Source of the DNA: an uncultured virus (IMG/VR IMGVR_UViG_3300035698_002590) | Taxonomy: Duplodnaviria > Heunggongvirae > Uroviricota > Caudoviricetes | DNA length: 64,000 nt | IMG/VR virus record: IMGVR_UViG_3300035698_002590 | Reading direction: 5' to 3' (one strand) | In this document: positions 13,375 through 60,524 of the stretch, piece after piece | Position numbering within the stretch: position 1 is the stretch's first letter | Layout: each line of letters opens with the position of its first letter | Translations under genes and position numbers: made by a program | Notes under the pieces: model-generated | The model's input: the letters and a program-made list of their open reading frames with translations, nothing else | Told to the model about the DNA's origin: nothing | The model's database searches: none

Positions 13375-13389
13375 ATACTTATGTATCTC

Positions 13390-26100: not shown

Positions 26101-29100
26101 ATAGGCGATATAAACTTGCCTCTGAGAGCATCGTAGTATGCCGGTACATCAAAGTCTGTGTCGTTGCCTAAGTAGTTGTCAAGCCCTTCATAACGTAAAC
26201 TAAACTCACGAATTTGAACATGATACGGCTTAACTTCTTTAATATAGTCACTAACAAAATCCTGGTTATCCCGTCTGTAGATTGGATACGGAACCAAGTC
26301 ACGAATTTTATGAGTAACATCAATTAAGCTGGTTTTAAACAACCAGTCTGGGGCTGTTTGTTCTGACATAATAAATTCAAATGCCTGCACTAGCAGTTGG
26401 TTGCGATAAATCTCTAAGTCTGTTGTAAAGATTTCTTGGTTTAATGCTTTGAGGATTTGGCGTGTCTCAATTGTTGGTGCCTGGTCAAATAGTTGCGCAT
26501 CAAACACTTCAGTGTCAAATCCAAAACGTCCAATTGCATAGTCCCAGATGGTATTACTAATTGCAACTGTACCGTCTGTGAGCTGTACACGCACCCATTC
26601 AGCACTAGTTGCATTCCATTGATATATTTCACTTTTACCGAAGCTATTTGCAGTAACTTTAACTGTGTCGCCGTTTGATGGTGTCAGTGCAAGTAAGTCG
26701 CTGTAAAGAGGAACTTCAACTGCTGGTCTAGTTGAAACATCATATCCTGTCGCTGACCAGTTAACATAGTTCCAGTAAAGTTTTGTATCATAGTTCTGAA
26801 CTCTATTCAGCAATAGTGTTTTATTTGCCTCAACTATATAGATAGTCCATAAGCCTTGTTGAGTAGCATCGCTTGCCACAAGGTACTTGTAGCCAACTGG
26901 AACTTGGCGCAGATCCTGGTATGTTAGTTCTGCATAAGTTGCAACACGTTTGTTCCATGCACCGCTAACACTAGTTGGTTCTGGATCTTCGCTGTTGAGT
27001 AAATCAAATTTCTTGCTTTCACTTAGTGGATATAGAGCCATGATTTTATTTGCACGAGTTAAGTAGTTTTCAAGTGCAAGGAATCTATCTACAAATAAAC
27101 TCTGTCTTGGACGGAAGCTAACTCCATACTTGTCTGCTATACCCAAAGTTGCATCAGGCACTAGATTCCCCAAAGTGTCTTCGCCACAATAGCTGTCGAG
27201 CATCTTTCTATAAAGTCCTGCTCCTAAGAAACTGTTAGCATTATTGACAGTAATTAGATCATATTCAGCGTGAACATTATCGTTATTTTCAATTTTATCA
27301 AACTCAATATGCAAAATTGTGTCAGTAGCACTTATTAATTCACGACAATTGTATAATGCCATTGTGTTTGGTGCAATTGCAGCAATATAATTAATACCAC
27401 TGCTGCGCGGATTTTCAATATACTGAGCAACACCTTGTGCACTTAATGTTTTGCCTGTGCTGACACTAGTAATGTTCTTAACCCAATAGTAATAATAAGT
27501 TACAAAAGTGCCTGCACTATCAAGTACACTAGTTATAGTAAAACTTGTAATATTGTAAACTGTACCTGGGCCAGTGTATTCAGCCGGTGGAACACTGCTT
27601 TCAGTCCATTGATAAACATCTACAACCGAACCTTCAAATAGTTGTCCCCAACGACGGGCTTTGTACTCGATTGTATCTTGATGGTAATCAATGAATCTAA
27701 CTGTTGATAGATCCCACCACATTTCGCCAAGGTGATCGCTGTTCCACTGGCTACCAAAGTTGTTTACTGTGCCGGCGTTATACGCTGCTGGGTCAATTCC
27801 GCCAGTAAAGTCGATGTTTGCTTGTGCTGCTCCAAGTATTTTTCCTTGTAGCGGATCAATGAAGTCTAGGTAGTTAGTAACAGCGTTATCAATTTTGTTA
27901 TACGTAAATACACTGTTTAATAGTGCTGCATTAACAATTGGTTCTTGTATATAGACTATTTTCCACGCTAGTTGTTTATTAGCGTTAGTAAATTGAGAAA
28001 TGCGTCCAAAATTAGCTATTGCGCTATCACCAAGATCATCATTTGGTGCGCCAACTAGCAATATACCATCATGATAATTAACTGCTGCGCCAAAGTTGTC
28101 AAAGCTGGTAATAGTAGTGTCGTAAATTTGTTGTCCAAATACAAACAAGCCAGGATTTGTAATACTTGCATTAGCTGCATTCAAGAAGTCGTATGTATAC
28201 ACAACACCTGATTCAGTCACTGCATCTAGGAATGATGTACTGTTTGAATCAAAGTAAGTAGTTGCAGCATCGAATGTTGTTGGCAAAAATGCAGTTGCAT
28301 CCGGTGCGCCAACAACTAGTGTTGCTGCTGTATCACTAATGCTCAAACTGGTACCAAAATGCCCATATCCTTGTGCAACCGGAGATGTAATTGTTTGCGC
28401 ATAGACCATTGGTGCAAGTCCAAGATCAGTATATGCTGTTCCGGTGCCAGGCAGTACTTGTAGTTTAATAAACGCATCGCCAGCAGCTACATTCTGCAAG
28501 GTAAGTTGTAGTTTGTTAGCATTATTAATTGCAACTACGTTAGGAATATTAGCATTGTTAATATCGCTCACTAGAGTGGCAACTGTTGTGCCTGTTAGTG
28601 CAACATAATAGTTGTTGATACGAATGCTATTGCCTATTGATAGCGCTGGATTAGCAACTGTTCCAGTTATATTGCCAAACAATCTACTTTGGTTTGCCCA
28701 ACGATCAACACTGCCGCCTTCTGGCACAATTGCACTGTCGTTTGGCATGCCGATGTATAAACTGCAATTTGTTGGGCAGTTTTCGACTACATTACCAAAA
28801 TTGTAAGCAGCGCCAGGTGCAGTCGATTGTATGCTTTGCATTAATCTAAACGTGTTAGTTTCAATTTCAATAATATCACCAACATTTAGTGTTACAGGAT
28901 TAACAGTAGTACCAATTGTAACAACACTGCCAGCAACACTAAACTGTGGATTGTTAAAGTTGTTAGTCGGGATCAAATAGTTGCCATTGACAGTAACACT
29001 TACTGGTCCATTTGGTGCATCTGTTACTGTGTAGGCGACCACTGCTGAGTCAGTAACTTGGAACCGTTCAACACTTCTGTCAATGATATGAACTGTTCCT

Positions 29101-32100
29101 GCTAAGGTGTCGCTACCAACTGTGTTGTTTGGTGCGCCAATAATAATCTGGCGGCCATCTGTGGTTGTCGAAATACTCTGCCCAAAACGGGTTGCACCGC
29201 TAAGTCCAGCAATTGATTGTGGTATTACGTAAACATATTTCCAATAGCTATCTGCTCTTATAAGAACTGATCCTGTTACTCCAACAACAAGCACAACATT
29301 ATTGCCAGACAAGTTATAATCAATTGTAGGGCGTTGTAATACGTTATTGACGTAAACTGCAAAACTGTAAATATCAGTCACAGTGTGCAGCATGCTGGCA
29401 TCGAACGTAGTTTCTGATACCGTTGGAAAATATGTTTTACTTTGTAGTCTTGTAATGCGCAACTCGTCACCGTTGTTTAACGCTGTGTTAAACGTTACAG
29501 ATACTACACTGTTAACAGATGTTAATACCCAGTCTGTTACAGCAACTTTAGGAACGTTGTTAACAGTTACACCAATCTGAGTTTGTGCCGTTGCTAAATT
29601 GCTGTCAATCACAATAGTCGGAGTAATTGCAAAGCCGGTAGTAGCAGCATCTCCTGTGTATTTTACACTCTGACTTTGCACATCAATCAAGTTGTACGCA
29701 TTAACACTATTGTCACCTGGTGAGGAAATATACATCCAGCGTTCGTCTCTGCTAACTGCTACTCCGTAACCAAGCTCTGATGTTGCACCTGCTCCAGTAA
29801 AGATTTGAGTTTGTCTGTAGCTGCCGTTAGTTGAATTTCTGTTGATTGCAGTTGCATAACCTGTGTTACTGTCACTGGCACTTGCGCCTACTACTGCCCA
29901 ATCAAATTGTCCAGATGATACACTGCTACCAAATCTAGAGAATCCAGTAGTAGCAGGAATTATAGTTGCAGTTGCTACATATGCCCCTTCTCCTTTATTG
30001 TAAGCAACTACACCGCCGCTGTTGGTATACCCAGGCATGCCAACTAGTAGTCCTTGTTTGCGCAAGCCTTGGGAAATTGATGTACCATACAAGGCAGTCA
30101 CTTCGGCATCTGGTGCTTGCAAACCGGTTGGTGTAGAGAATGGGTTAATTTTTTCTAATACTTCCCATTTGTCGTTGCCGTTGTTGTCGACCCAAACTTG
30201 CTCACCGGTTACAATGTTATTTGCAAAAGTCAAGTTAGCAACGTCAGCGGGCTGAGCAACTCGCACACTTTCGAGAACAAATGCACGGCCATTGCCAGTT
30301 AAGTCAGTTGTGGTTCCGTTTAAGCTTAAATCAATTACTATGGTCCGTAAACTTGGCACCGAATCAACAATGTACGCACCGTCGACTGCACTTTCAAAGT
30401 ACTTAATAATCATTCTGTCAGCTGGCAATAGTCCATGATTAACATCAAACGTAATTGTACTAGTGCCATTTAAATTATCAAATGCAGAAATAACTGTAGC
30501 ATTAACTAAGTTGGTTCTGTAGATGTTCCAATCAAATCTATTTGCTTTGGCTACCCATATGTTAGAACCAACGATTACTGTATCAAGGTTGTTGATAACG
30601 CTTGTTAAGTCAGCATAGTCAAAAACTTTGATATCAATGTCGTCATAGTTTACATACCCAGCAGTCGGTAATCCTATGTCTTCGGCGATTTGATCTAACG
30701 TTGGCAATATATTTTTATTAGTTATTTTATAGCTTTGTTTCCATATAGAAGTTAACGGAACTGATTGATTAGCACTGCTTGTTTCGCCAGGATCAATGAC
30801 TGCAATAGTACTTGGATTTCCTAGTAATTTGCTTTCGTCGAGGCGTAATTCAAAATAACTACGATTTGCATTAGCACCATAAAGGCCGCGTTGAATTGCC
30901 CAATTTTCATATATTTCATACTCAGCTTGCTCTTTGCCAAGATTGGCACTAGTGAATATTTCAGCCGCAGCAAGTGTGCCTTTGGTTCCCAAGAATTGCG
31001 AATACAGTCCAGCTTGCGAAATATCATCTAAGTTTAAATTTTGCATGTACTGTCTAGGTCTAAATCCAATTAGTCCTAGTCCAAGTAGAGTAGCGTCTTG
31101 TTCTAGATTTGCAGTGTGTATATCGTAGTTTTCACGGAAGCCGTCTGCTTTACTAGCAAGGTTTGGCAGCAAGCCTTTTTGTATTTGAGTGTAATCACTT
31201 TTTAGCCATTTAGAAAAATCAAATGTCTCAGTCGGTGACAACAGTTCAGCTGCACTCCAATAAGCATTTTTATAAAGAACAATTTGTCCTTTAGTGTATG
31301 AGTTGTTAGGTACCCACTCTTTTATATTGTCCTCATTGAGGATAAACCCTTGCGCATCAAGTGTGCCGTTCCAGTTATACACTGTATACCCATTTAACAA
31401 CAAACGACTTTGTCTTGCAGCAGTTTTTGGTTCATAGATAAGGTCATTAAAAATACTAATATTATCAAACACAATAATATGTTCATAGCTAGTAAATCTT
31501 GCATTAAGATAGCTAAATGTCTGATTATTAAGTCCAATTAATTTAAGTTCATTGTCAAGTCTCTCAACTGAGTAGTCTTGTGATAGCAATGGCTCAAAGT
31601 TTTGATTTAACAATATATCATTGATGTTTTCACTTTTTAAACTTTCAACTACACTATTTGGTTTTTCTAATGTCAATACATTAGCAGAAGGATTTAAATT
31701 AATCAAACTACCAGCAATCCAACTTTGTCCAGACCAATATAAAAATTCTTGAGCCATCTGACTCCAAGTAAGAATAGAACCGCGGTCAGTATTGTCAAAA
31801 CTTAAACCTTGTGACTCTAGCAATTTACCGTAACTAATTAAAAAATCAACAACTCCATTTTTAGTTGTAAACTCATATCCATACGGAACTTGAACTACAG
31901 TATTAGTAAAAGTTTTAGCAACACGAACTGTTTCGCCATTTACAGTTATTGTACTGAAGTTTCCACTTGGTACACTTTGTAATATGTCAAAATACGGTTT
32001 TGTAGTAGAGTAACCACTGACAGTCCATCCTGTTGTAGATCTCTGTACAATAACACTACTATACTGCACTTCTGCAAAACTTGGATTCTGATAAAGAAAC

Positions 32101-35100
32101 AGTTGATAACTTTCGTCTGGCAGTAACAAACTAGCGTTCAGGCTATTTGGTGAAGATTTTTCGCTGAATATTTTTAGGTAGTTTTGGTCACTGAATGCAG
32201 CCATTCTATAACACAAACGTACATCAATATTTGCTAATTTAGTTTTTAGTATATCGGTACTGTCCAGGCCAGTGACTCTGTTGTAGTCAACAATAAAATT
32301 AATGTAACTATTCTTAATAGTACCATTGCCATAAATTTCAAGTTGTGATGGGTTTAGTCTAAATCTGTTGTTATACAAATATTGGTTAAAGTCTGTATTA
32401 TACTGCCACTCATCCCTGTCTGCAAACAATGAGAAGTAGTTTGCTGGTTTAGTTAGTGCAAGCAATCTTTGAATTGCAAACGGATAGTAACTACTGCGTC
32501 TCCATGCTGTTTCGGCTGGGCCCATGTCGCCGGCAACCCAAGATTTTTTGAAACTGTTTTGATCATAGTTTCCAACAATGCTACTAAATGGTGATAATAA
32601 GATACCTTGTGTATCAGTTGGAATACATTGTAACAATTCTGGACGAACGTATTCAGGACGAATATATGGTGTTACCGGATCAGCGACACGACCTGCTGCT
32701 AGATCTTCCCATAACACTAAGTTACCAGAAGTATAAGGAGCTGGACCGTATCTAGTGTTCCACCAAGTTGGTTTTTCTGACAATCCTAGCATTTCCCAGG
32801 GACGAGTGTCCGGGCTGTCTGTATCATATAGCTGGAAGTAGATAGCTCTCCACCCACCTAATAGGGGATCAGTTGACAAGCGATTGGTACTACTACTATA
32901 ATTCCAAGTAAACTCGTCGTTTGCCAAGTAGGTCTGTGATTTATAAGGAATGCGGTTGCCGCCGCACCAGGATAGAAAACTAACAGCAAGTATGTTGTTA
33001 ACGTCAGCCAAACTGTATTCAGTTGTGCGGAACTGCCCTGGGATAACATCAGTTGCTTTAAGAGGTAACGCATTACGTTCTTCTGCGTTAATTTTAATAT
33101 TGTTGTATACTCTCTTTTCAAACTCGAGCAATACTTCGTTTCTGTAATCGCCTTGCTCCCACGCAACTGTTATGCTACCGTCATGTCCTTGTATAACTTC
33201 TTGCGGAACAACATATGTATTGTCAACAAATGTACGCGGACGATATATTTCATACATTCCCATCATACTAGGTGTTGCTGGAACAAAACTGCCAGCAGTT
33301 GACTGATACTCACGTATAGAAATAAGATCGCCGTTGTTTAAGGTAACGTTGGCAGTGTTAATTGTGATCCGTGGTCCATCTACTGCAACAGTATAGTCAT
33401 ACCCTTCGCCAGTTAAAATAGTTTGTATGCCAGTGCTAATTGGTGTGTGGTATACCAATATGCCTGCATAGTTTGCTGTAAGCATGTCATAGCTGTAAAG
33501 CGTGTCAAACACATTTGAAGTAATTGGACTAACCGTATATGTTGTTAACTCAAATATAGGACCTGCTGGGATAGCATCAGTCCAATAAAACGGACTAAAC
33601 TGATTCTTGCCAGCGTTAACTGCTTGCAATGAATCGTCTAATATTTCAGCAGTAGTTTTTCCTTGCCAGTCAGTTTGCGCAACATAGTTTAAAATTTTAT
33701 TTTTTGTTTTATTATATTCAGTTGCATTAAATTCTAATGCACGGAAAAACTCAAACTGTCTGCCGTTGATAAAGTTTGTCATCATGCTCAACGGAGCACT
33801 TTGTTGCAAAATTATTCCGCCAAACGGAACAACATTCCCTAGATCGCGCATGTTGTTTGCACCGTGTATCTTGCCAGAGAAGTGTTGTAAGTTCTGACAG
33901 ATACTTTCATAATGCTTGCGAACAGTACCTAGTGTAAATCCATCGCTGTTTTCATTTAATGCATTTGATTCGAGGTTAACTGGTATAGTATAAAAGCCAA
34001 CGTTACTCGCAACATCACTGATAACTTGAGCTTCAACTACTGCACCAGCAGCTGGAGTAGAGGTTGTTGTGCTGGCATTAAAGGTTATCGACGTTGTTCC
34101 GCTAGCATTAGTTGCATAGGTATATGTGCTCGGAAGAACAAATTGTCCTTCAACATAAACCTTAACAGGAATTAATGACGTATCAGCAACAACTTGTACG
34201 TCGAGAACAAGAGGCACGCCTGTGTATTCAAAAGTAAAACTTTGGCGTTGAACTGTCTTAGTAAATGATGTTTGCCACCCTAGTAGTTTGTCAAATGCAA
34301 TTCTAGTACTATACTGTCTGACTACACCTGTGTCAATCTTTTTTGTAACACTAACTGTGCCCTTAACATAAACAAACGTATCAACATACAAGTTATTGTC
34401 AAATACAATATCACCGACATTAGCAATAGCTGAGTATTTTAGTGGCTGCCCAATAATAGTATCTGTTACACCTGCCCCGACTGCATAGCTAAACAGCTTG
34501 GTGCCCACAAACGTGGAACTTGGATAAACAGTTTGGTCGCCAAAGCTGTACCCATTGCTGTCAAATGTATCAAACAACGGGGCTTGGTTAACACCAGATT
34601 TTTGTTGTGATGGTAACCAGTTAGTACCGTTAAACCAATATGTTAACCCTTGTAGCGTTGCGCCACTTGATATCACAGTAGTTGTATTATTTGGGATATC
34701 CGGAGTTGTTAAACTTGCCGGCTGTAGATCAATAATTGGCAAGACAGTTGAATCGCCAATATCTGGCGTAATAAACGTTACTTCGTATATTTTATTTCTT
34801 ACCTCAGGATCCAAGTCAGCAGCAAAGATGACTTTAGATCCTGTAATTAACGCATAACCATCAATGCTATATCCAATACTGCCATTGATATTTGAGAACG
34901 CATCAGTTTCATTGAAGTCAATGATATTAACTGTGTTAATTCCCACTGTGCCGTAATTATAAAGTTTTAGATTCTTCCTAAACTCTAACACAGGACGTTT
35001 GGCTCTGTTAGTATTATTGATTTCTGCTGGAACTTTATTATAAATTGCAGTAGCATTTAATACATCAACGTGGAACCATCTATTACTACGACTCCATGCA

Positions 35101-36686
35101 TTTCTATCAATGCTTGCTCTATTAATAGTCATGTAATCTTGGGTAGTTGGCGCATTTAGTGTACTATCAAAATTGCCTTCGTCATATGGTGTGCTGTCGT
35201 ATGGAAGCGAAGAACTAGCTGTGTATGTTTCCGGAGTGATAAAGTCAGACACTAATAACAAGTCAATTGCTGTGCCAACTCCTTCAACATAGTATTCGTT
35301 GTTTTCGTAACTAGCAGGAACAACTGTTCCAATAAACCGCACCTTGAGACCATTAGTAAACACAACACCATTTGGAGATGTGTAGTCCTTCTTACCAATA
35401 ATAGCAGACATGTTTAAATCTGCAGAATTTGCTTGATCAACAACGTTGATAACACCAAAGTTGGTTTCGTCAATGCCATCTTGGTAGTAAAGAATATTTG
35501 CATTAGCAGTAATAAGAGGTTGACGCTCTAACGTACCTTCGGCATTCTTGTACCACGTAACACCAGCATTGTTTGTACCGTATTCAATTAACGTTTTATT
35601 TAAATTTGGAATACTTTGATTAACAGTGAGCTCCATAAACGGACGGTCAGGATCTGCATAGTTAAAGTTAATTCTCCACTGCACATATCTTTGAGCGTCA
35701 GTAGCCAATGGAGTAGAGTCATCGTATGGACCTTCGCCAAAGCCATTGCCTTCTGTGTCAAATGGCACTTGAATTTCCCATCCAGCATCAGTGCTAGTTG
35801 TAAAAATCAACGTGCGATTTTGTAAGTCGGTGATTCCGTCAATGCCGCCGTGTGCAGCAAGAAACGTATCGACATATTGATTATTAATTTCAGTAAATTT
35901 TAATGTGTCTTCGACTAGATCAGTTGCCCCAATATCAGCAAGTGTAAAATAAAAGTTTTGGGCAGTTTTTGCAGGTACATCAAATGTAACTGTGCCAGTG
36001 TCTTCTCCATTGTTAATTACGCCTAGTACTTGTCTTGATGATTGATTTGTTTGATATGGCAAGACACCAGCGGTGCCAGGGACACTTTGAATCCAAAAAT
36101 CGTGCCCAGAATCATTTACATTAAATGTGTAATTGCCTTCGCGCACAAGTGTTAGCGTAGGCAATGTACCAGCTTCGCCCGAAAAAGTATAACCAGTGGC
36201 TGTTACGTCAACATCAAAATCATCACGAATCGGTGCAGAATTTGCAAATACGTCAACGCTGTTTGGTCCTTCGGGCACCCAGTAGTATTGTCCAAAGTTT
36301 ACATATTTGTCGTAGTCAACAAATGGGTCAAAGCTATAGTGCTCACTGTTAAACAATCTGTTGTGGCGTGTAACATCTGCACCTTGCAGTGCTAGGCTAT
36401 TAATAATACCCGGGTAAGTAATTGCTGATTCAATTTTATTAGTATTTGGTTTAAGCTGAACAACACCTGGTTCTAGTTGGTAATCTGTTCTAGTAACCGT
36501 TGGTTCTAGCACATAGTTGTCACTGGCAGTAACACCGGGGCCTATTTTGCGCCCAATGTACCCTTGAGTTGGTTTTAATTTTGGGTTTTGATATAATTGG
36601 TCAAGAGTACTACGCAACAATTGTTTGTTAGCAGGTGTCTGGAAGATCTCTGGAAGAAACTCTTCAGAACGAATTCTTTTAGCCAT
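23136..36686 (-). CDS. Giant (4516 aa) virion structural protein, baseplate wedge/fibre-like
   Basis: Uninterrupted 13.5-kb ORF directly after gp6; FG-GAP-like beta-propeller repeats (FGxSV...VGAP), GGTGY/GSGY repeats, GDGSTTTF-type repeats. Confidence 0.85.
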   Translation of the reverse strand: MAKRIRSEEFLPEIFQTPANKQLLRSTLDQLYQNPKLKPTQGYIGRKIGPGVTASDNYVLEPTVTRTDYQLEPGVVQLKPNTNKIESAITYPGIINSLALQGADVTRHNRLFNSEHYSFDPFVDYDKYVNFGQYYWVPEGPNSVDVFANSAPIRDDFDVDVTATGYTFSGEAGTLPTLTLVREGNYTFNVNDSGHDFWIQSVPGTAGVLPYQTNQSSRQVLGVINNGEDTGTVTFDVPAKTAQNFYFTLADIGATDLVEDTLKFTEINNQYVDTFLAAHGGIDGITDLQNRTLIFTTSTDAGWEIQVPFDTEGNGFGEGPYDDSTPLATDAQRYVQWRINFNYADPDRPFMELTVNQSIPNLNKTLIEYGTNNAGVTWYKNAEGTLERQPLITANANILYYQDGIDETNFGVINVVDQANSADLNMSAIIGKKDYTSPNGVVFTNGLKVRFIGTVVPASYENNEYYVEGVGTAIDLLLVSDFITPETYTASSSLPYDSTPYDEGNFDSTLNAPTTQDYMTINRASIDRNAWSRSNRWFHVDVLNATAIYNKVPAEINNTNRAKRPVLEFRKNLKLYNYGTVGINTVNIIDFNETDAFSNINGSIGYSIDGYALITGSKVIFAADLDPEVRNKIYEVTFITPDIGDSTVLPIIDLQPASLTTPDIPNNTTTVISSGATLQGLTYWFNGTNWLPSQQKSGVNQAPLFDTFDSNGYSFGDQTVYPSSTFVGTKLFSYAVGAGVTDTIIGQPLKYSAIANVGDIVFDNNLYVDTFVYVKGTVSVTKKIDTGVVRQYSTRIAFDKLLGWQTSFTKTVQRQSFTFEYTGVPLVLDVQVVADTSLIPVKVYVEGQFVLPSTYTYATNASGTTSITFNASTTTSTPAAGAVVEAQVISDVASNVGFYTIPVNLESNALNENSDGFTLGTVRKHYESICQNLQHFSGKIHGANNMRDLGNVVPFGGIILQQSAPLSMMTNFINGRQFEFFRALEFNATEYNKTKNKILNYVAQTDWQGKTTAEILDDSLQAVNAGKNQFSPFYWTDAIPAGPIFELTTYTVSPITSNVFDTLYSYDMLTANYAGILVYHTPISTGIQTILTGEGYDYTVAVDGPRITINTANVTLNNGDLISIREYQSTAGSFVPATPSMMGMYEIYRPRTFVDNTYVVPQEVIQGHDGSITVAWEQGDYRNEVLLEFEKRVYNNIKINAEERNALPLKATDVIPGQFRTTEYSLADVNNILAVSFLSWCGGNRIPYKSQTYLANDEFTWNYSSSTNRLSTDPLLGGWRAIYFQLYDTDSPDTRPWEMLGLSEKPTWWNTRYGPAPYTSGNLVLWEDLAAGRVADPVTPYIRPEYVRPELLQCIPTDTQGILLSPFSSIVGNYDQNSFKKSWVAGDMGPAETAWRRSSYYPFAIQRLLALTKPANYFSLFADRDEWQYNTDFNQYLYNNRFRLNPSQLEIYGNGTIKNSYINFIVDYNRVTGLDSTDILKTKLANIDVRLCYRMAAFSDQNYLKIFSEKSSPNSLNASLLLPDESYQLFLYQNPSFAEVQYSSVIVQRSTTGWTVSGYSTTKPYFDILQSVPSGNFSTITVNGETVRVAKTFTNTVVQVPYGYEFTTKNGVVDFLISYGKLLESQGLSFDNTDRGSILTWSQMAQEFLYWSGQSWIAGSLINLNPSANVLTLEKPNSVVESLKSENINDILLNQNFEPLLSQDYSVERLDNELKLIGLNNQTFSYLNARFTSYEHIIVFDNISIFNDLIYEPKTAARQSRLLLNGYTVYNWNGTLDAQGFILNEDNIKEWVPNNSYTKGQIVLYKNAYWSAAELLSPTETFDFSKWLKSDYTQIQKGLLPNLASKADGFRENYDIHTANLEQDATLLGLGLIGFRPRQYMQNLNLDDISQAGLYSQFLGTKGTLAAAEIFTSANLGKEQAEYEIYENWAIQRGLYGANANRSYFELRLDESKLLGNPSTIAVIDPGETSSANQSVPLTSIWKQSYKITNKNILPTLDQIAEDIGLPTAGYVNYDDIDIKVFDYADLTSVINNLDTVIVGSNIWVAKANRFDWNIYRTNLVNATVISAFDNLNGTSTITFDVNHGLLPADRMIIKYFESAVDGAYIVDSVPSLRTIVIDLSLNGTTTDLTGNGRAFVLESVRVAQPADVANLTFANNIVTGEQVWVDNNGNDKWEVLEKINPFSTPTGLQAPDAEVTALYGTSISQGLRKQGLLVGMPGYTNSGGVVAYNKGEGAYVATATIIPATTGFSRFGSSVSSGQFDWAVVGASASDSNTGYATAINRNSTNGSYRQTQIFTGAGATSELGYGVAVSRDERWMYISSPGDNSVNAYNLIDVQSQSVKYTGDAATTGFAITPTIVIDSNLATAQTQIGVTVNNVPKVAVTDWVLTSVNSVVSVTFNTALNNGDELRITRLQSKTYFPTVSETTFDASMLHTVTDIYSFAVYVNNVLQRPTIDYNLSGNNVVLVVGVTGSVLIRADSYWKYVYVIPQSIAGLSGATRFGQSISTTTDGRQIIIGAPNNTVGSDTLAGTVHIIDRSVERFQVTDSAVVAYTVTDAPNGPVSVTVNGNYLIPTNNFNNPQFSVAGSVVTIGTTVNPVTLNVGDIIEIETNTFRLMQSIQSTAPGAAYNFGNVVENCPTNCSLYIGMPNDSAIVPEGGSVDRWANQSRLFGNITGTVANPALSIGNSIRINNYYVALTGTTVATLVSDINNANIPNVVAINNANKLQLTLQNVAAGDAFIKLQVLPGTGTAYTDLGLAPMVYAQTITSPVAQGYGHFGTSLSISDTAATLVVGAPDATAFLPTTFDAATTYFDSNSTSFLDAVTESGVVYTYDFLNAANASITNPGLFVFGQQIYDTTITSFDNFGAAVNYHDGILLVGAPNDDLGDSAIANFGRISQFTNANKQLAWKIVYIQEPIVNAALLNSVFTYNKIDNAVTNYLDFIDPLQGKILGAAQANIDFTGGIDPAAYNAGTVNNFGSQWNSDHLGEMWWDLSTVRFIDYHQDTIEYKARRWGQLFEGSVVDVYQWTESSVPPAEYTGPGTVYNITSFTITSVLDSAGTFVTYYYYWVKNITSVSTGKTLSAQGVAQYIENPRSSGINYIAAIAPNTMALYNCRELISATDTILHIEFDKIENNDNVHAEYDLITVNNANSFLGAGLYRKMLDSYCGEDTLGNLVPDATLGIADKYGVSFRPRQSLFVDRFLALENYLTRANKIMALYPLSESKKFDLLNSEDPEPTSVSGAWNKRVATYAELTYQDLRQVPVGYKYLVASDATQQGLWTIYIVEANKTLLLNRVQNYDTKLYWNYVNWSATGYDVSTRPAVEVPLYSDLLALTPSNGDTVKVTANSFGKSEIYQWNATSAEWVRVQLTDGTVAISNTIWDYAIGRFGFDTEVFDAQLFDQAPTIETRQILKALNQEIFTTDLEIYRNQLLVQAFEFIMSEQTAPDWLFKTSLIDVTHKIRDLVPYPIYRRDNQDFVSDYIKEVKPYHVQIREFSLRYEGLDNYLGNDTDFDVPAYYDALRGKFISPILDNNTDNPSSLSSFPSTDPIWGTWPYSQWFNNYLLELNSVTVLNGGTGYTVPPQVIVTGDATTQATMEAKVNSAGEVISVDVLTTGSGYTTTPVITISGGNGVGATAIAVLATGVIRDFTTTIKYNRITYTSQVLDWAPNTVYTATELVRYPVPTVGKVNAVKPQVYQVITDFTSETIFDPENYTVVDPSTLDGADRTIGMYTPTPTEPGRELAQLMLGINYPGVQVEGPDFSQNTGYDVGNFDINPFDNIDFGPEGQPTYDPGILDAIYESTFLDSYLGIRPTDINVEGGEFIDTYSSHAPEELVPGSEFDTLDLKVYTRPGSDWLTDGNGFAINNVSVEYAGVGTTVSFAALMNYPVGVDVINETTRQNIPEGDYAVNWITKVITINTINNGAIGDTFNVEVWGLGGGSQLYKESFVGSAITNATQLINVAYTEIAELVVFVNGELITTYTYAASGNFATNVTFDIQPTATDWVTITALGVTTPTQLSWSTPQIQRFTHDGSTSQYALTNSLQGTNIVNMIVERNGLRLRAPEGIEYTSDGSSLGPYYLSTTGKTNQDLIADNDVLVYVDNVQKNLAVDWTLSEFDGSSDRYVEFNSSSQPANGAEILIAVTTEADYTIVNTNDLLLRVTAIPNTQFNVHTYNDTAQQNIITKVFQGPTSEGTTTGIAFDESDYDDDPYDYTVGIVIQTNNFALGRLVTNPDRMVVTLNGGHLHIGGEFNLTTGSDGFSILTVDGGILGANDVLIVTMFTMNVIPDSLNFRIFQDMLNSQKILKLNNSNTTELVADLTQTADTVYVKDASKLSAPALASNIFGQMMVGAERITYRTRSLENNTVSGLRRGVAGTGAFAHVSGVSVSDVGMAQQVPSAYQQVTTSDTTNIGDGSTTTFIGSNIVVPTVVDSTELDEAVRVSVGGTVLIPTTDFTVTEVDATQVEITLTTAPGDGVEIDISIVTGKVMYAQGNGTASNGIALQDQTTAAALFLKDQG

Positions 36687-47959: not shown

Positions 47960-48868
47960 ATGTCAGTAGACAAAAAAATAGTTGTTAAAAAACCTAAAAA
48001 AGTTAACTATCTCAACAACCGAGATATTCTCAAAGAAATTTACAAAAGTAAAAGCACATATTGTTCATACCTAGAGGCTAAGTTTGCACAGTATGATATT
48101 ATTTTGCCTAGTGTGGACAAAATAAATCAACGCACTGTTGCGGAGGCGCGGCGTAATAAAGCTGATCGAATTAAACGAGAAACAGGAGAGATTGTTGATC
48201 CAACAAAACTTAGCAACCAAGAGCTAGTGTTTCGTATTACTTGCTGGGAACATATCCCAATGGTACCAAAGAAACTAACTAAAGCTCAAGAAAAAAAGAA
48301 ATCCAAGCTAGAAGAGATTCTAGAAATGGATGATATTGATTACACTGACGATGGGTTACAAGAACTTATGTCCGAAGTTGAACAAGATCTCAACTTTGTA
48401 AAGTTAAACTTTCCTCCATTCTGGCATTACATAATCGACAAAGATAAAGTACCGCATATTGTTGGGAAAAGCCATTGGGTAGGTGGATTGGAAAACGGTC
48501 ACTTCTCAAAAGATCACGGCAAGATGACAGACAAACTAGCACACATGTTTATTAAACTGTGTGAACGCTATGCAACACGTTCAAACTGGCGTGGGTATAC
48601 TTACAACGAAGAAATGCGAGGACAGGCACTGTTGCAGTTGAGCCAAATTGGTTTGCAGTTTGATGAATCTAAATCACAAAATCCATTTGCATACTACACG
48701 GCTGCTATCACCAACAGCTTTACCAGAGTGTTAAACATCGAAAAGAAAAATCAAAACATTCGTGATGATATTCTAGAGAACGCTGGGTTAAATCCAAGCT
48801 GGACACGACAGTTTAACAACTCAGCTGAATCAAAAAGATTTATAGCAGAGACAAAAGTAACCAAATAA
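47960..48868 (+). CDS. gp55: Late-transcription sigma factor, T4 gp55-like
   Basis: NYLNN..IL.EI, RSNWRGYTYNEEM, FDESKSQNPFAYYTAAI.NSF.R.LN.EKK; synteny with gp47/gp46. Confidence 0.85.
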   Translation: MSVDKKIVVKKPKKVNYLNNRDILKEIYKSKSTYCSYLEAKFAQYDIILPSVDKINQRTVAEARRNKADRIKRETGEIVDPTKLSNQELVFRITCWEHIPMVPKKLTKAQEKKKSKLEEILEMDDIDYTDDGLQELMSEVEQDLNFVKLNFPPFWHYIIDKDKVPHIVGKSHWVGGLENGHFSKDHGKMTDKLAHMFIKLCERYATRSNWRGYTYNEEMRGQALLQLSQIGLQFDESKSQNPFAYYTAAITNSFTRVLNIEKKNQNIRDDILENAGLNPSWTRQFNNSAESKRFIAETKVTK

Positions 48869-48878
48869 GGACTTATAC

Positions 48879-49892
48879 ATGGGTTTGTTTAATAAAGCCT
48901 TGGTATTCACTGACATCCACTTTGGCATGAAAAGCAACAGCACTCTTCACAACCAAGATTGTGAGGAGTTTGTTGAATGGGCAGTGGAACAAGGCAGATT
49001 GCACGGATGTGAAACTTGTATTTTTATGGGAGACTGGCATCACCATAGAGCAAGTTTAAGTTTGCAAACAATGCATCACAGCTTACAAGCATTAGAAAAG
49101 TTAAGTGCAGGATTTGATGATACACATTTTATTACAGGCAATCACGACTTGTACTATCGCGATAAACGCGATATTTATAGCTACGAGTGGGCACAACATA
49201 TTCCAAATGTGCACATACACAACGAATGGTTTGAACAAGACGATGTTATACTTGTTCCGTGGCTAGTCGGTGATGATCATAAGCGTGTTAAAAATGCCAG
49301 TGCCAAATACATGTTTGGACATTTTGAACTTCCTCACTTTAAGATGAATGCAATGGTAGAAATGCCAGATCATGGTGATATCAACGCAGAACATTTTACT
49401 GGCTACGGCGAAGTGTTTAGTGGACACTTTCACTTGCGTCAGAAGAAGAACAACATCAATTATATTGGTAATGCATTTCCGCATAACTTCTCTGATGCCG
49501 GCGACGATCAACGTGGAGTTATGATACTAGACTGGGATGGTACCAAGGAATACATCTCTTGGCCCAATCAACCTCTTTACAGTGTTATGAATTTAAGTGA
49601 TGTAATTGACTTTGCAGACGATCGCCTCAAGCCAAGGATGCATGTTCGTGTTAATTTAGACATTGAAATCTCATACGAAGAAGCAAACTATATCAAAGAG
49701 CAATATATTACCAAGTACAACTTACGAGAGATGGCACTAATTCCAAACAAGCAAAGTGTACTAGAAGAAGAGATGAATCCTGGTGATATCAAATTTGAAA
49801 GCGTTGATCAGATTATCACTGAGCAGATTATTGCAATCGACAGTGAGTTTTACGACAACAAATTGTTGCTAGAAATATACAGGAGTCTTTAA
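48879..49892 (+). CDS. gp47: Recombination endonuclease subunit (Mre11/SbcD-like)
   Basis: DIHFG, GDWHH, GNHD, GHFE, SGHFH metallophosphoesterase motifs. Confidence 0.93.
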   Translation: MGLFNKALVFTDIHFGMKSNSTLHNQDCEEFVEWAVEQGRLHGCETCIFMGDWHHHRASLSLQTMHHSLQALEKLSAGFDDTHFITGNHDLYYRDKRDIYSYEWAQHIPNVHIHNEWFEQDDVILVPWLVGDDHKRVKNASAKYMFGHFELPHFKMNAMVEMPDHGDINAEHFTGYGEVFSGHFHLRQKKNNINYIGNAFPHNFSDAGDDQRGVMILDWDGTKEYISWPNQPLYSVMNLSDVIDFADDRLKPRMHVRVNLDIEISYEEANYIKEQYITKYNLREMALIPNKQSVLEEEMNPGDIKFESVDQIITEQIIAIDSEFYDNKLLLEIYRSL

Positions 49893-50975: not shown

Positions 50976-52733
50976 TTGATTCAAATTAAAGATCTTACAG
51001 TTAAAAACTTTATGAGTGTAGGTAACTCTACACAAGCAATTAACTTTGATCGTCAAGATCTTACATTAGTACTAGGCGAGAACCTTGACCTTGGCGGCGA
51101 CGGTAGCAGAAATGGTACTGGTAAAACCACTATCATTAATGCACTTAGCTATGCACTGTACGGACAAGCACTTACTAATATCAAACGTAACAATCTAATC
51201 AACAAAACTAATAGCAAAGGTATGATGGTAAGTTTGGACTTTTGCATAGGTGAGCAATGCTACCGAATTGAACGTGGCCGTAGTCCTAATGTGCTGAAGT
51301 TTTATATTAACAATAGCGAACAAGAATCTGATGACAATGCACAGGGTGATAGTAGAGAAACACAAGGAGCTATTAACAAACTGTTAAACATGAGTCACAC
51401 CATGTTCAAGCACTTAGTAGCACTAAACACTTACACTGAACCGTTTTTGAGTCTTAAAACAAACGATCAACGTGAGATAATCGAGCAACTGCTGGGCATT
51501 ACACTGCTCAGTGAACGTGCTGAAAAGATTAAAGAACTAAACAAGCGTACCAAAGATTCAATCAAAGAAGAAGAAATGTCAATTCGGGCATTACAAACTG
51601 CCAATGAAAAAATTGGCGAGCAAGTTGAAGCACTCAAGCGTAGACAAACTCTTTGGTTAAACAAAAAAGCCGAAGATACTAGTAACATTGAACGTGCTAT
51701 TAGCGATTTAGGCCATGTAAATATTGAAGAAGAACTTGCAGCACACGAAAAGTTGGTTAACTGGACTGCAATTGACAACGAACAATCACAATTACAAAAA
51801 GACATTGCTGCATTACAGTCACAGGTCAGCCGAGCTGATAGAGATTTCAAAAGAACCAAGAAGTCAATTGACAGCATCGAGGACGGTACTTGTAGTGCAT
51901 GTGGGCAAAGTGTTGATCACTTGGAAACACACAAACAACAAATGATTGATGCAAAAAAAGAGCACCAAGATGCAGTCAACTTCCTAACAGAGCTAGAGCA
52001 AGGAATTGCTACACTGTTAACTGGGAAGAAAGATGTTCCTGCAAAACCTCAAACATTTTACGACAGCCTTGCAGATGCACACAATCACAAGTCAAGTTTG
52101 TCTGCACTTGAAACTCAACTAACAAACAAAAAAGATGAAAACGATCCGTATGTTGAGCAAATATCCGAAATGGAAACCGCAGCTCTGCAAGAGATTAGCT
52201 ATGACAATTTAAACGATCTAACACGGTTACAGGAACATCAAGACTTCTTGTTAAAACTATTAACAAATAAAGACAGCTTTGTTAGAAAACGCATCATTGA
52301 CCAAAACCTTTCTTATTTAAATTCTAGATTGACACATTATTTAGATCGGATAGGGTTGCCGCACACTGTTATCTTCCAAAACGATCTCACTGTAGAGATT
52401 CAAGAGCTGGGCAGAGACTTAGACTTTGACAACTTGAGTCGCGGTGAGCGCAACAGACTTATACTAAGCATGAGTTGGGCGTTTCGTGATGTGTGGGAGA
52501 GCTTGTATGGCTCAATCAACTTGTTGTTCATCGACGAGCTAGTAGATTCAGGAATGGACACATCAGGTGTTGAAGCAAGTTTAGCACTGCTTAAAAAGAT
52601 GGCTCGCGAACGTAACAAGAGTATCTGGCTTGTTTCCCACAAGGATGAACTTGCAGGTCGTGTAAATAACTTGCTTAAGGTTGTTAAGGAAAACGGCTTT
52701 ACTAGTTATAGTAACGATGTGGAAATAATCTGA
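50976..52733 (+). CDS. gp46: Recombination ATPase subunit (Rad50/SbcC-like)
   Basis: KNFMSVG, Walker A NGTGKTT, Zn hook CSAC, signature LSRGE, Walker B LFIDE, VSH; TTG start. Confidence 0.95.
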   Translation: MIQIKDLTVKNFMSVGNSTQAINFDRQDLTLVLGENLDLGGDGSRNGTGKTTIINALSYALYGQALTNIKRNNLINKTNSKGMMVSLDFCIGEQCYRIERGRSPNVLKFYINNSEQESDDNAQGDSRETQGAINKLLNMSHTMFKHLVALNTYTEPFLSLKTNDQREIIEQLLGITLLSERAEKIKELNKRTKDSIKEEEMSIRALQTANEKIGEQVEALKRRQTLWLNKKAEDTSNIERAISDLGHVNIEEELAAHEKLVNWTAIDNEQSQLQKDIAALQSQVSRADRDFKRTKKSIDSIEDGTCSACGQSVDHLETHKQQMIDAKKEHQDAVNFLTELEQGIATLLTGKKDVPAKPQTFYDSLADAHNHKSSLSALETQLTNKKDENDPYVEQISEMETAALQEISYDNLNDLTRLQEHQDFLLKLLTNKDSFVRKRIIDQNLSYLNSRLTHYLDRIGLPHTVIFQNDLTVEIQELGRDLDFDNLSRGERNRLILSMSWAFRDVWESLYGSINLLFIDELVDSGMDTSGVEASLALLKKMARERNKSIWLVSHKDELAGRVNNLLKVVKENGFTSYSNDVEII

Positions 52734-52744
52734 TAACTACTGAT

Positions 52745-53152
52745 ATGACATGGTATCACAACGACAATGAAGTACTAGACATCCCAGAAGGTGCAATTGG
52801 GTTTGTATATTTAATTACAAATACAACAAATAACCGAAAGTACATTGGTAAAAAACTTGCACAGTTTAAACGCAGCCGAAAGCCACTTAAAGGCAGAGTT
52901 AACAAACGTAGATACACTGTTGAAAGCGATTGGCAAGACTATTATGGAAGTAGCGATGCACTATCAGCTGACGTAGAACTACTAGGCAAAGACAAGTTTA
53001 AACGTGAAATAATGTTTTGGTGTAGTAGCAAGAGCGAACTTAGCTACATTGAAGCTAGAGAACAATTTTCGCACAAAGTGTTAGAAAGCAAAGACTGGTA
53101 CAACGGGCACATACAAGTCCGTGTACATCAAAAAGGCATACTAAAAGAATAA
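52745..53152 (+). CDS. Stand-alone GIY-YIG nuclease (135 aa)
   Basis: GFVYLITN..NNRKYIGKK, YYGSS, F.REI, conserved E in YIEAREQ, WYNGHI. Confidence 0.85.
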   Translation: MTWYHNDNEVLDIPEGAIGFVYLITNTTNNRKYIGKKLAQFKRSRKPLKGRVNKRRYTVESDWQDYYGSSDALSADVELLGKDKFKREIMFWCSSKSELSYIEAREQFSHKVLESKDWYNGHIQVRVHQKGILKE

Positions 53153-53254
53153 AATTACATACTAGATAACTATTTGCATAACTATCATGCACAGGCAACT
53201 ATACAGAGCAATGCTCAAATTTCCCTTTAAAATTTCCCAGCTATTATAGGAACA

Positions 53255-53612
53255 TTGTTTGGTCGAGGTACCTCGACTCGCTATGAGAGCATGCGACATC
53301 GTATGTTCAGATATTATAGTGCTGTTCCAAGGACAAGCTAACTTAAGGCTAAAATGATATAGGCTCTGTGAAACAGATACAACCTATACCCTCGATATAC
53401 TTGCTTGAATAGGTATATTATAGGGCTCCGTTGCGAGACAAGGCTAGAGTAGGGTGTAAAGCGTAACCGCATCCGTTGTAGTATAAACCGTGCATTAAAA
53501 ATTGTTAATGTAGTGTTTATTTTATGAATCTCTTTATTCAAGTGACTGTTACGACTCAGATGATGACGTTCAGTTGTACTTGCCCTGTGTAAGGGCAAGT
53601 ATGACCAAATAA
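53255..53612 (+). ncRNA. Putative large structured non-coding RNA (~360 nt), family unassigned
   Basis: Closing helix 53255-53264/53603-53612, at least 8 nested hairpins, G-U pairs favouring the plus strand, a GCGA tetraloop, and a potential pseudoknot 53402-53411/53535-53544; folded by eye only. Confidence 0.6.
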
Positions 53613-53710
53613 TCTAGATGATAACGAAACACTCGTTACACTCGTGCTTATATATTACTACTATAAAAATGTTATAATAAAAGTATTATTAAGAGCGTTA
53701 GCGAATTAAT

Positions 53711-53731
53711 AAGTCTTGCGAAGTAAGACTT
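53711..53731. other. Hairpin aagtcttgc-gaa-gtaagactt in an AT-rich tract between convergent units (terminator or origin element)
   Basis: 9-bp inverted repeat with one G-T pair. Confidence 0.45.
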
Positions 53732-53783
53732 CCATAGTGTAACACTAAGATACTTAAATAATTAGATATATGAATAGTTCTCT

Positions 53784-54107
53784 TTAATATTGATCTGGAA
53801 AATCTCTATAGAGAAAATGTTGGATAGTTTCCACGTCAACTAACTGATTAAACGCATGATGTTTAATTTCGATATCGTTGCTGTCAGTTACTACGTGCTT
53901 CATTGCGTCATCTAGATCTTGCATGTTTTTAAATTCCATGTCAATGCGGAACTCTGGTAAGTCCATGCTGCGGAACCCTAGTTTCATTCTAGTAATGCGA
54001 TAGCTGTGCAGTGTGGGTAATGCATCAAGAAATGCACTCATTTTTGTTACAAAGTCATGTGCGTTAACGCCTTCGTTTACGTCTGAGTAGATAGTATAAA
54101 TGTCCAT
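53784..54107 (-). CDS. Hypothetical protein (DUF6614-like, dimeric alpha-beta barrel-type)
   Basis: MDIY.I, YRITRMKLGFRS..LPEF.IDMEF, C-terminal LYRDFPD; family recalled from memory. Confidence 0.6.
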   Translation of the reverse strand: MDIYTIYSDVNEGVNAHDFVTKMSAFLDALPTLHSYRITRMKLGFRSMDLPEFRIDMEFKNMQDLDDAMKHVVTDSNDIEIKHHAFNQLVDVETIQHFLYRDFPDQY

Positions 54108-54109
54108 GT

Positions 54110-54538
54110 TTATGTCCTTGGTCCTAAAATTTCAAATCCATTGATTTGTTTCTTATATTCATTGGCTTCACCTAAGTAAAGATATTCAAATCCTAAACGT
54201 TTGTAGAGTGCGCACTCACTGCGTAAACTTGCAATTCCTAACTTTAATTTAGGATTTTTGTAATCCCAAGCAAATTGCACCGCCTCTACGTTTTTACTGT
54301 TGTATCGTCGCATCAATGAAAATGCAACCAACGTATCTTCGTTGTAGTATCCAATAACATCGTTGCGAAGTTCGTGATACTCCTCAGGAAATATTGGTTC
54401 AACACTACTAAATTTTTTGTACACACAGTACGAATTAAATAGTTCCTCGAGTTCATCTTGGTTGGGATCTGTTATAATTTTACAATTAGGTAATTCAGTG
54501 TAGTCTGTCTCGTATAGTTTAATTCTTGCGTATAACAC
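54110..54538 (-). CDS. Arginyl/leucyl-tRNA-protein transferase (ATE1/Bpt) C-terminal GNAT-like domain protein
   Basis: YY....LVAFS, AVQFAWDY..P.LKLG..SL..E...YK.LGFEYLYLG...YK. Confidence 0.65.
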   Translation of the reverse strand: MLYARIKLYETDYTELPNCKIITDPNQDELEELFNSYCVYKKFSSVEPIFPEEYHELRNDVIGYYNEDTLVAFSLMRRYNSKNVEAVQFAWDYKNPKLKLGIASLRSECALYKRLGFEYLYLGEANEYKKQINGFEILGPRT

Positions 54539-60171: not shown

Positions 60172-60179
60172 ATATTATT

Positions 60180-60395
60180 ATGAAACTATTTGAATTTTTT
60201 GAAGCAGCACCTGAAGGTTACCAAGATGTAGAAGACGACAATTCTACCCCTCGGCTTGGAGAACTGCGTAAAACCAAACTAACTCTTAAGCAGATTTCTA
60301 AGCTGCGTAAAATGTACGACATGCGAAATTATGAAAAACAAGAAGAGCTGAAAAAGATTCAAGCACAGTTTGCACCGCCACCTGCGCAAATGTAA
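60180..60395 (+). CDS. Small head-module protein
   Basis: 71-aa ORF between portal and core genes; RKTKLTLKQISKLRKM. Confidence 0.75.
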   Translation: MKLFEFFEAAPEGYQDVEDDNSTPRLGELRKTKLTLKQISKLRKMYDMRNYEKQEELKKIQAQFAPPPAQM

Positions 60396-60524
60396 GACTT
60401 TAATAGAGATTTTTTCTTTAGTCCTATTAAGTCATCGTTTTCTACCCATTTTACCCCTATAACTACATAGTTTTTAACATCTATGTTAAATATTACACTG
60501 AGCCCATACTTTGGAGGAACCAAT

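Follow-up and report, generated by a model that had tools for sequence, protein, structure and literature searches.

This analysis concerns a structured RNA encoded in a 64,000-nt stretch of DNA from an uncultured virus (IMG/VR record IMGVR_UViG_3300035698_002590; Caudoviricetes), which is referred to below as the window and is a segment of a T4-like myovirus, probably a jumbo phage. A gap of 631 nt (53153-53783) lies between the gene for a 135-aa SegE-type GIY-YIG nuclease (52745..53152, plus strand) and a DUF6614 gene that is convergent toward the gap (53784-54107). This is the largest internal gap in the window between open reading frames (ORFs) of at least 90 aa, with the runner-up at 311 nt, as had been claimed in an earlier sequence-only reading of this DNA, made without database searches. 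Positions 53187..53735 of the plus strand encode a conserved, pseudoknotted non-coding RNA. Between 53250 and 53620 the plus strand folds with a minimum free energy of -114.9 kcal/mol (z -4.84, equalled by 0 of 100 shuffles) and the minus strand with one of -89.6 kcal/mol (z -3.10). Nine of the helix pairs listed in the sequence-only reading are G-U on the plus strand, in keeping with its claim that the imperfect pairs are plus-strand G-U pairs. Sequence conservation sets in near 53177, as judged from relatives with a different upstream gene, and ends at a hairpin at 53711-53731; because conservation spans this interval, the RNA is taken to be approximately 550 nt long in the window and approximately 480 nt in most relatives, a range also spanned by matches from nhmmer and from a covariance model (CM), and the transcript ends would lie near these limits. 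The RNA is therefore longer than the approximately 360 nt first proposed. No gene follows it on the same strand in the window. A protein-coding reading was rejected: the 86-aa minus-strand ORF at 53338-53598 has no Pfam or PHROG match and is broken by indels in relatives, and across the relatives of the RNA no ORF is kept in place and strand, with indels that are not multiples of 3.

Homologues of the RNA are present in more than 100 phage contigs and were ascertained in two ways. Searching IMG/VR with the nuclease protein gave 594 relatives in 600 matched stretches, of which the best 80 were fetched, while ascertainment by RNA only used a 17-mer from the P8 hairpin described below, which had exact matches in more than 120 IMG/VR viral contigs, of which 80 were fetched. 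Among the 80 nuclease-ascertained loci, blastn detects the conserved gap sequence next to the nuclease in 15, at 69-79% identity, a sequence profile detects the RNA in 49, and a 120-position core CM (model R1, built on 60 sequences) detects it in 60. Two of the RNA-ascertained loci (L103 and L105) are chance 17-mer matches without a core CM match. The family is abundant among contigs of uncultured phages from marine and saline samples. A scan of 596 Gb of prokaryote genomes gave 87 matches to the 17-mer, against approximately 70 expected by chance, and among the 80 of these loci that were searched there were four strong core CM matches (96-116 bits) and one marginal one (L245, 24.4 bits). The four strong matches are on small contigs of marine metagenome-assembled genomes (L254, L266, L280 and L282, from Neomarinimicrobiota, two archaeal bins and Pseudobdellovibrionaceae), and these are probably mis-binned phage DNA. 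A blastn search of 50,697 phage records for cultured relatives, using the window RNA and a divergent-clade RNA, gave zero matches.

The fold was assessed on three sets of sequences: an unfitted MAFFT alignment of 15 window-clade RNAs (A1), on which a hand-written structure of 92 pairs was counted; a CM-fitted alignment of 98 matches, 92 of them distinct sequences; and, for an independent column-pair scan, 42 divergent-clade sequences mutually less than 95% identical. In the CM-fitted alignment, counted on the 92 distinct sequences, 89.3% of cells are paired, compared with 68.4% in shuffled alignments, and 21 of the 24 core pairs show two-sided changes (453 cells), which is the covariation across homologous loci that the sequence-only reading had put forward as the check on its structure. 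The covariation score is 0.545 against 0.186 when shuffled, is reached by 0 of 500 shuffles and falls to 0.167 or less when pairing partners are slid. Because a CM-fitted alignment leans to its model, the count was also made on the unfitted A1, where 41 of the 92 pairs have two-sided changes and the score is 0.213 against 0.112 shuffled, again with 0 of 500 shuffles reaching it. RNAalifold applied to A1 predicts 70 pairs, 26 with compensatory changes. The scan of the divergent clade re-found helices P6 and P10, the pseudoknot, the stem of the 3' module and the terminal hairpin.

All of the helices named in the sequence-only reading are present at or near the positions given there, and they differ in how widely they are kept. 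The long-range enclosing helix stands as a closing helix, P1 (53255-53261 / 53606-53612), that is shorter than was claimed; on A1 75% of its cells are paired, with one double change and G-C to G-U changes, and an equivalent pairing appears by eye to be present in the alignment of the divergent clade. P1 is followed by the P2 hairpin GTCGAGG/CCTCGAC (53262..53277; 87.6% paired on A1, 5 of 7 pairs with two-sided changes) and by the P3a arm GAGCATGCG/CGTATGTTC (53287..53308), which is real in the window and lineage-specific, being confined to the window's sub-clade; it is 40.8% paired across the 15 sequences of A1, and other clades have a different, longer arm. The P4 hairpin (53336..53350) has a conserved 7-nt loop and is 100% paired on A1, with two-sided changes in 2 of 4 pairs. 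P5, an ATAGG/CCTAT stem, encloses an inner P5a, CTG-TGAAA-CAG with a UGAAA loop (53359..53387); P5 is 100% paired on A1, and 4 of 5 pairs in P5 and 3 of 3 in P5a have two-sided changes in the CM-fitted alignment of 92 distinct sequences. All 11 pairs of the P6 hairpin (53389..53425) have two-sided changes among the 92 sequences, and 10 of the 11 covary in the independent scan of the 42 divergent-clade sequences. The loop of P6 (53403-53411) forms a 9-bp pseudoknot, GCTTGAATA/TATTCAAGT, with 53535-53543, and this interaction, which had been suggested from the letters of the window, covaries in both clades (6 pairs in the 42 divergent sequences; in the window clade 5 of 9, with 86.7% of cells paired on A1). 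P7 is a 3-bp stem, GTT-GCGA-GAC, with a GNRA loop (GCGA/GUGA; 53430..53439), 88.9% paired on A1 and not kept in its window form in the divergent clade. The P8 hairpin (53452..53474), with a conserved 11-nt loop, is the best-conserved block of the family; it is 99.8% paired among the 92 sequences, with two-sided changes in 3 of 5 pairs, and 100% paired on A1. P9 (53476..53527) is a variable expansion arm, and the long arm at 53483-53520 singled out by the sequence-only reading, although present in the window, is an insertion found there only: it is missing in the other 14 relatives of A1, two of which carry different inserts at that place. P10, the hairpin TACTTGCCCT/AGGGCAAGTA (53577..53601), lies between the pseudo-repeats discussed below and is 89% paired on A1; in the divergent clade it has 11 bp and 5 covarying pairs. 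UCUAG at 53613-17 can pair with CUAGA at 53444-48 (96% paired on A1, zero double changes). Beyond it are a 3' module (53689..53709), whose covarying stem varies (TTAA/TTAA, TTGC/GCAA, GAAAC/GTTTC) around a constant GAGCG..AGCGAA loop, and the terminal hairpin (53711..53731), the likely 3' end of the RNA, which in relatives has 7 bp and 3 covarying pairs.

The RNA may be its own transcription unit, as suggested by this covarying terminal hairpin and by a conserved promoter-like block, TTGACC-N15/16-TATAAAC, which in the divergent clade lies between the start codon of the nuclease gene (opposite strand) and the RNA. The matching region of the window, a candidate promoter region at 53156..53186 (plus strand), is weaker. 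The ATAACTA motif that had been read as a late-promoter-like signal was rejected as a promoter, with a frequency at chance level (13 matches in the window against 14.2 expected). Parts of the stretch are contained in 20 sequencing runs from 17 studies of marine, salt-lake and brine samples, two of which are RNA libraries; the runs are available as contigs only, such that uncovered stretches are uninformative and genes cannot be ranked by depth. The first RNA library has a 378-nt contig that shows 4 differences from 53390-53767. The second has contigs of relatives, which cover 53187-53480, 53362-53475 and 53527-53625, skipping the window-specific arm and leaving out 53475/80-53527. Metatranscriptomes, where the sequence-only reading had proposed to look for a discrete plus-strand RNA, therefore contain its sequence, in contigs that give no ends, strand or level.

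The RNA is a new, previously uncatalogued family. At gathering score, Rfam 15 gave 0 matches over the 64-kb window, the models for GOLLD, ROOL, HEARO, RNase P, group I and II introns, T-box, tmRNA and RAGATH-14 included, and ARAGORN found 0 tRNA or tmRNA genes there, so that the lack of a tRNA, tmRNA, RNase P or group I/II intron match noted by the sequence-only reading is borne out by the Infernal/Rfam search it had recommended for the gap. With the threshold relaxed to E<=10, the only matches of the window region were RAGATH-14 (19.6 bits, E 0.78, where gathering stands at 149.1) and a snoRNA model, and 14 diverse homologue loci gave seven weak matches far below gathering, with no family recurring at the RNA. 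No relevant Rfam family was found in 20 of the fetched prokaryote loci. A resemblance to RNase P was considered and discarded, as no RNase P model matched the window or the 14 homologues at E<=10. A group I or II intron with a homing ORF was likewise rejected, since the upstream gp46 gene is complete (585 aa) and no intron model matches; the RNA is also on the strand opposite the nuclease in 22 loci. No account of the RNA was found in open-access full text, subscription journals being outside that coverage.

A feature that had not been expected lies in the 3' half of the RNA, where two direct pseudo-repeats of approximately 24 nt, R1 (53541..53566) and R2 (53599..53625), flank the P10 hairpin. 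Their constant parts differ: the spacer of R2 forms the 3' strand of P1, and R2 overlaps both this strand and the UCUAG strand. Each repeat terminates in a segment of 7-9 nt, here called the tag, that is the same within a genome and different between genomes. In the window both tags are AGAUGAU (53558-53564 in R1, with the triplet AUG at 53560-62 and A at 53563; 53616-53622 in R2). The general pattern is a 2-nt prefix, usually with a purine first, a triplet and a near-invariant A, which the window fills as AG-AUG-A-U. Prefix, triplet and next base are identical in R1 and R2 in 41 of 42 divergent-clade sequences, the 42nd being misaligned, and in 15 of 15 of the window clade, and these two alignments contain 9 different 6-mer tags. 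The 67 sequences compared contain at least 15 variants of the tag, with the triplets AUG, CAC, GUG, UAC, AAG, UAG, AUA, AAA, ACA and GAA. An A follows the triplet in all the sequences scored in the two alignments (41 of 41 and 15 of 15), and exceptions to it are L041 (U) and L115 and L130 (G). For each variable column of the R1 tag, the top mutual-information partner is the equivalent column of R2. A variable, guide-like segment, of the kind that the sequence-only reading had suggested looking for, is thus present as two identical tags that vary between lineages. The tags are not self-complementary, and no consistent complement was found in the RNA, either among 67 sequences with G-U allowed or in the column scan, nor within approximately 3 kb of the RNA. 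A degenerate 14-mer search of the window returned only the two tags (0 and 2 mismatches) and mostly 3-mismatch noise. A partner in cis was rejected on these grounds, given also that the complement shows no enrichment in the window. The repeats were considered as a mini-CRISPR or an anti-CRISPR repeat mimic, which was rejected as the 'spacer' between them is a conserved, covarying hairpin.

The neighbouring nuclease consists of a catalytic domain only, as had been proposed. Pfam PF19835 (SegE_GIY-YIG; E 1.9e-35) spans residues 3-123 of 135, and the AlphaFold2 (AF2) model is a single domain (pLDDT 88) with a disordered tail from residue 125. The GIY and YIG motifs together with R56, E103 and N120 are invariant in 24 relatives, with a mean column identity of 74%, which places the protein in the GIY-YIG superfamily (SegE type) by its motifs and conserved Arg, Glu and Asn; the fold match is weak, the top PDB match being the I-TevI catalytic domain (E 0.26, prob 0.89), and a sequence search of the PDB gave no relevant match. 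No C-terminal DNA-binding domain is evident from Pfam coverage or the AF2 model, and no RNA-binding domain was detected with Pfam, NCBIfam or the fold search. The protein family is also found in cultured myoviruses, in 762 records, every one below 60% identity and often labelled 'NAD synthetase'. Homologues of the 135-aa protein in P-SSM4, S-SRM01, phiM12 and many other deposited phages carry this annotation, and the domain evidence says nuclease. Its gene follows nrdB in Melnitz, lies by endolysin genes in S-SRM01 and phiM12, and follows talC in P-SSM4 and S-RIM2. In cyanophage S-RIM2 (L292) a tRNA-Arg gene (3535-3607) lies approximately 160 nt downstream of the nuclease homologue.

RNA and nuclease are linked but separable. 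The RNA core is present in 60 of the 80 nuclease-ascertained loci, and a GIY-YIG gene is within 2.5 kb in 60 of the 80 RNA-ascertained loci. In the RNA-bearing phages the nuclease gene stands at the 5' flank of the RNA; among the 60 nuclease-ascertained loci with the RNA, 38 have the two in tandem and 22 have them on opposite strands, usually directly adjacent. Two of the related loci have ORFs of 329 and 273 aa between nuclease gene and RNA, without a Pfam family (L003:3405-4394 and L004:3405-4226). Of the 20 RNA-ascertained loci that lack a GIY-YIG gene, five have, upstream and on the strand of the RNA, a gene for a PF24608 'phage putative PDDEXK endonuclease' in the position that the GIY-YIG gene takes elsewhere (L085:3724-4239, L092:1779-2285, L098:2732-3238, L108:2751-3281 and L111:2716-3234); this PD-(D/E)xK gene directly adjoins the RNA in four of them and is one ORF away in L085. 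Two further loci (L087 and L158) have a gene resembling aminoacyl-tRNA protein transferases (ATE-like, described below) in place of the nuclease and no nuclease beside the RNA, and others either run into a contig end or have small uncharacterised ORFs. Conversely, the nuclease family occurs without the RNA in five cultured phages: the core CM matched in 0 of 3 loci with a nuclease homologue (Melnitz, S-SRM01 and phiM12), and in all five phages, P-SSM4 and S-RIM2 included, the gene has no large gap beside it. Some nuclease and RNA distances are discordant: the nuclease of L142 differs by 1-6% from those of L121, L163 and L093 and its RNA core differs by 26-29%, and the same tag is paired with a GIY-YIG nuclease in the window and with a PD-(D/E)xK nuclease in L098. 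It is this combination of adjacency in 60 of 80 loci, nuclease swap or absence, nuclease without RNA and discordant distances that leads us to describe the pair as linked but separable. The proposal of a nuclease-associated RNA thus holds as genetic linkage in both directions, and not as an obligate partnership, since some loci have another nuclease or none. The nuclease gene could be either a mobile, homing-type gene or a conserved housekeeping nuclease.

A second recurrent neighbour of the RNA encodes the ATE/Bpt-like protein, with an aminoacyl-tRNA protein transferase C-terminal domain (54110-54538, minus strand, in the window). The window protein matches Pfam ATE_C (E 3.3e-07) and NCBIfam arginyltransferase (E 1.3e-05, under that model's cut-off). 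An ATE_C/Bpt-like homologue is within the fetched flanks in 52 of 98 RNA loci, and in 46 of 98 there is none there. The gene directly follows the terminal hairpin of the RNA on the same strand in 34 loci, and elsewhere is downstream on the opposite strand in 11 (the window included), upstream on the opposite strand in 6 and upstream on the same strand in 1. Its recurrence may be plain synteny. The ATE-like proteins of L121 (1515-2288, minus strand) and L087 (1522-2247, minus strand) are 27% identical (E 5e-22), and only one of them matches Pfam ATE_C.

We tentatively favour an explanation in which the RNA would be a stand-alone, trans-acting scaffold with two tags that read a base-pairing partner, the nuclease being a non-obligate neighbour. 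The pseudoknotted multi-helix core (P1-P8 with the P6-loop pseudoknot) would support the 3' half with its two pseudo-repeats, each of which would expose the same unpaired 7-nt tag, and both tags would base-pair in trans with the same kind of nucleic acid, the remaining RNA serving as scaffold. The GIY-YIG gene would then encode a free-standing, exchangeable nuclease or a housekeeping phage nuclease rather than an obligate RNA-guided partner. Pairing of both tags with one kind of partner in trans is suggested as the simplest mechanism because the tags are identical within a genome, vary between lineages and have no complement in cis, and a base-pairing partner is favoured over a protein because the tags change greatly between lineages. 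Identical, co-varying tags would point to bivalent recognition of this partner. Several observations weigh against this explanation. No partner of the tags was found, and the 64-kb window shows no enrichment of their complement; a dimeric protein, or a site at the DNA level, could also account for tag identity. The CM-fitted alignment is biased toward the structure of its model. In a consensus scan of 52600-54000, sigma-70-like sites are not in excess and no promoter was called; nor was an intrinsic terminator called there, the terminal hairpin at 53711-53731 included. Support for transcription comes from the contigs of two RNA libraries, from which ends, strand and level are unreadable and which may derive from DNA. 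As regards the nuclease, its distances correlate with those of the RNA core (Spearman 0.58 over 81 loci), its sequence is strongly conserved (74% mean column identity), and it stays beside the RNA through inversion (38 tandem, 22 divergent); because of these three features a functional tie between nuclease and RNA stays in consideration. Finally, the tRNA sets of the phages show no consistent match to the tag triplet.

This last point bears on one particular form of the trans-acting explanation, in which the RNA is a tRNA reader and each tag pairs with the anticodon loop of one lineage-dependent tRNA species. The scaffold would in this case hold two tRNAs, either for the ATE/Bpt-like transferase or to shield or sequester tRNA in infection. 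We consider this quite unlikely, and have retained it because the ATE_C/Bpt-like gene recurs beside the RNA. The contig of a close relative has tRNA-Met among its 9 tRNAs, and in another contig with an AUG tag 3 of the 4 tRNA matches could be typed, none of them as tRNA-Met. The RNA-bearing contigs G003 (L115, 330 kb) and G004 (L085, 192 kb) have 33 and 27 tRNA matches, most of which are grouped into one or two clusters. In its variable triplet followed by a conserved purine, and in the nearby product that uses aminoacyl-tRNA, the RNA resembles the specifier of T-box Stem I, and this is resemblance only: unlike a T-box, it has two copies of the tag, is not consistently a leader and is phage-encoded, and no K-turn, S-turn, double T-loop or T-box bulge was identified in it. 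As a T-box leader it would also lack, in the window, a downstream gene on the same strand, a called terminator and an Rfam T-box match. If true, reading of tRNA by this RNA would be T-box-like decoding outside a riboswitch. Closely related is the view that the RNA acts in cis as a giant 5' leader or attenuator of the ATE/Bpt-like gene. The 34 of 98 loci in which the ATE-like ORF immediately follows the terminal hairpin, on the strand of the RNA, are what such a leader would predict, but 11 loci, the window among them, have the gene downstream on the other strand, 7 have it upstream and 46 of 98 lack it within the flanks fetched, and no terminator was called in the window, such that we regard this view as very unlikely.

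Other explanations dispense with a base-pairing partner, or give the nuclease a larger part. The RNA may be architectural or catalytic, an RNA-only assembly or a ribozyme in the manner of ROOL, GOLLD and OLE, with the tags as structural contacts. An RNA of this size, carried by phages and rich in covarying helices, with a pseudoknot and GNRA loops, would fit, as would the negative outcome of the search for a partner of the tags, and with more than 400 nt, several helices, a pseudoknot, covariation support and a phage origin the RNA is of the same kind as the large ornate phage RNAs ROOL and GOLLD (Rfam), also of unknown function, although this is a likeness of kind and not homology. Structural contacts, however, normally need a covarying counterpart, of which there is none in cis, and the tags lack self-complementarity; no similarity to known large RNAs was found with CMs, and unlike ROOL and GOLLD the window RNA has another architecture, with duplicated variable tags and recurrent nuclease and ATE-like neighbours. 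We therefore hold this explanation to be somewhat unlikely. Alternatively, the RNA gene, conserved in nucleotide sequence, may be the target or landing pad of free-standing nuclease genes of the T4 seg/mob homing type, with tag variation partly an escape from cleavage. Like these genes, the nuclease has a SegE-type GIY-YIG domain, lies by a conserved gene and is swapped (for the PD-(D/E)xK enzyme) or absent in some relatives; its insertion is always at the 5' flank in either orientation, its neighbours in cultured phages are varied (nrdB, endolysin, talC), and some nuclease and RNA distances are discordant. Unlike seg/mob proteins, the RNA-linked nuclease has no C-terminal DNA-binding region, is highly conserved and has a syntenic position after talC in two cyanophages, and homing would leave the identity of the two tags unexplained; as such it is an unlikely explanation. 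That RNA and nuclease form a particle, with the RNA as scaffold or guide of the adjacent small nuclease as omega RNA is for IscB (HEARO), appears quite improbable to us. Such a particle would account for adjacency in 60 of 80 loci both ways and in both orientations, for a second nuclease family in the same position, for the variable tags and for a nuclease without its own DNA-binding domain, and HEARO/IscB omega RNA is likewise a structured RNA with a short lineage-variable segment beside a small nuclease gene. The present system differs from IscB, however, in that orientation varies, RNA and nuclease are separable, and the variable segment is internal and duplicated; no RNA-binding part was detected in its nuclease, which is of the GIY-YIG or the PD-(D/E)xK family. 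Co-occurrence is not obligate and the arrangement is not fixed, with RNA lacking an adjacent nuclease and nuclease lacking the RNA both found, the same tag occurs with both nuclease families, and L142 forms discordant pairs with L121, L163 and L093. It is very unlikely that the locus is a DNA-level element, such as an iteron origin or a set of recombination or protein-binding sites, with incidental structure: direct repeats that are the same within a genome and variable between genomes do resemble iterons or crossover sites, but the strand asymmetry with its G-U pairs and the compensatory changes in 21 of 24 core pairs and in the pseudoknot speak against this view.

It is rare to find a large structured RNA with strong covariation, and several such RNAs later proved to be new machines. 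The present RNA is large enough for cryo-electron microscopy, and its identical tag pair is a built-in mechanistic clue, with a binding partner that is directly testable by tag swaps. For the small GIY-YIG gene, widely mis-annotated as 'NAD synthetase', the present data describe a nuclease-domain protein that travels with the RNA and is not dependent on it.

The gene order around the RNA is as follows. Upstream are genes for a gp55-like late sigma factor (47960-48868) and gp47/SbcD (48879-49892), two small ORFs and the complete gp46/SbcC gene (50976-52733), whose nearest cultured counterpart is only 49% identical and comes from PA5oct-like Pseudomonas jumbo phages. On the other side of the RNA, the DUF6614 gene was rejected as a universal neighbour, as two divergent-clade RNA loci are without a homologue. 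Beyond the ATE_C-like gene are two further convergent genes, one DUF6875-like and one for a gp26-like baseplate hub, with a portal gene farther on; the second-largest gap between ORFs, the 311 nt at 60172-60482, extends from the portal gene to the next ORF. A single giant ORF of approximately 4,500 codons occupies 23136-36686 on the minus strand and is followed by baseplate wedge and hub genes. Also on the minus strand, 5026-14823 contains a run of at least five radical SAM-domain genes together with a nucleotide-sugar epimerase gene, and radical SAM/SPASM genes also border the nuclease gene in the related loci L004, L009, L013 and L111.

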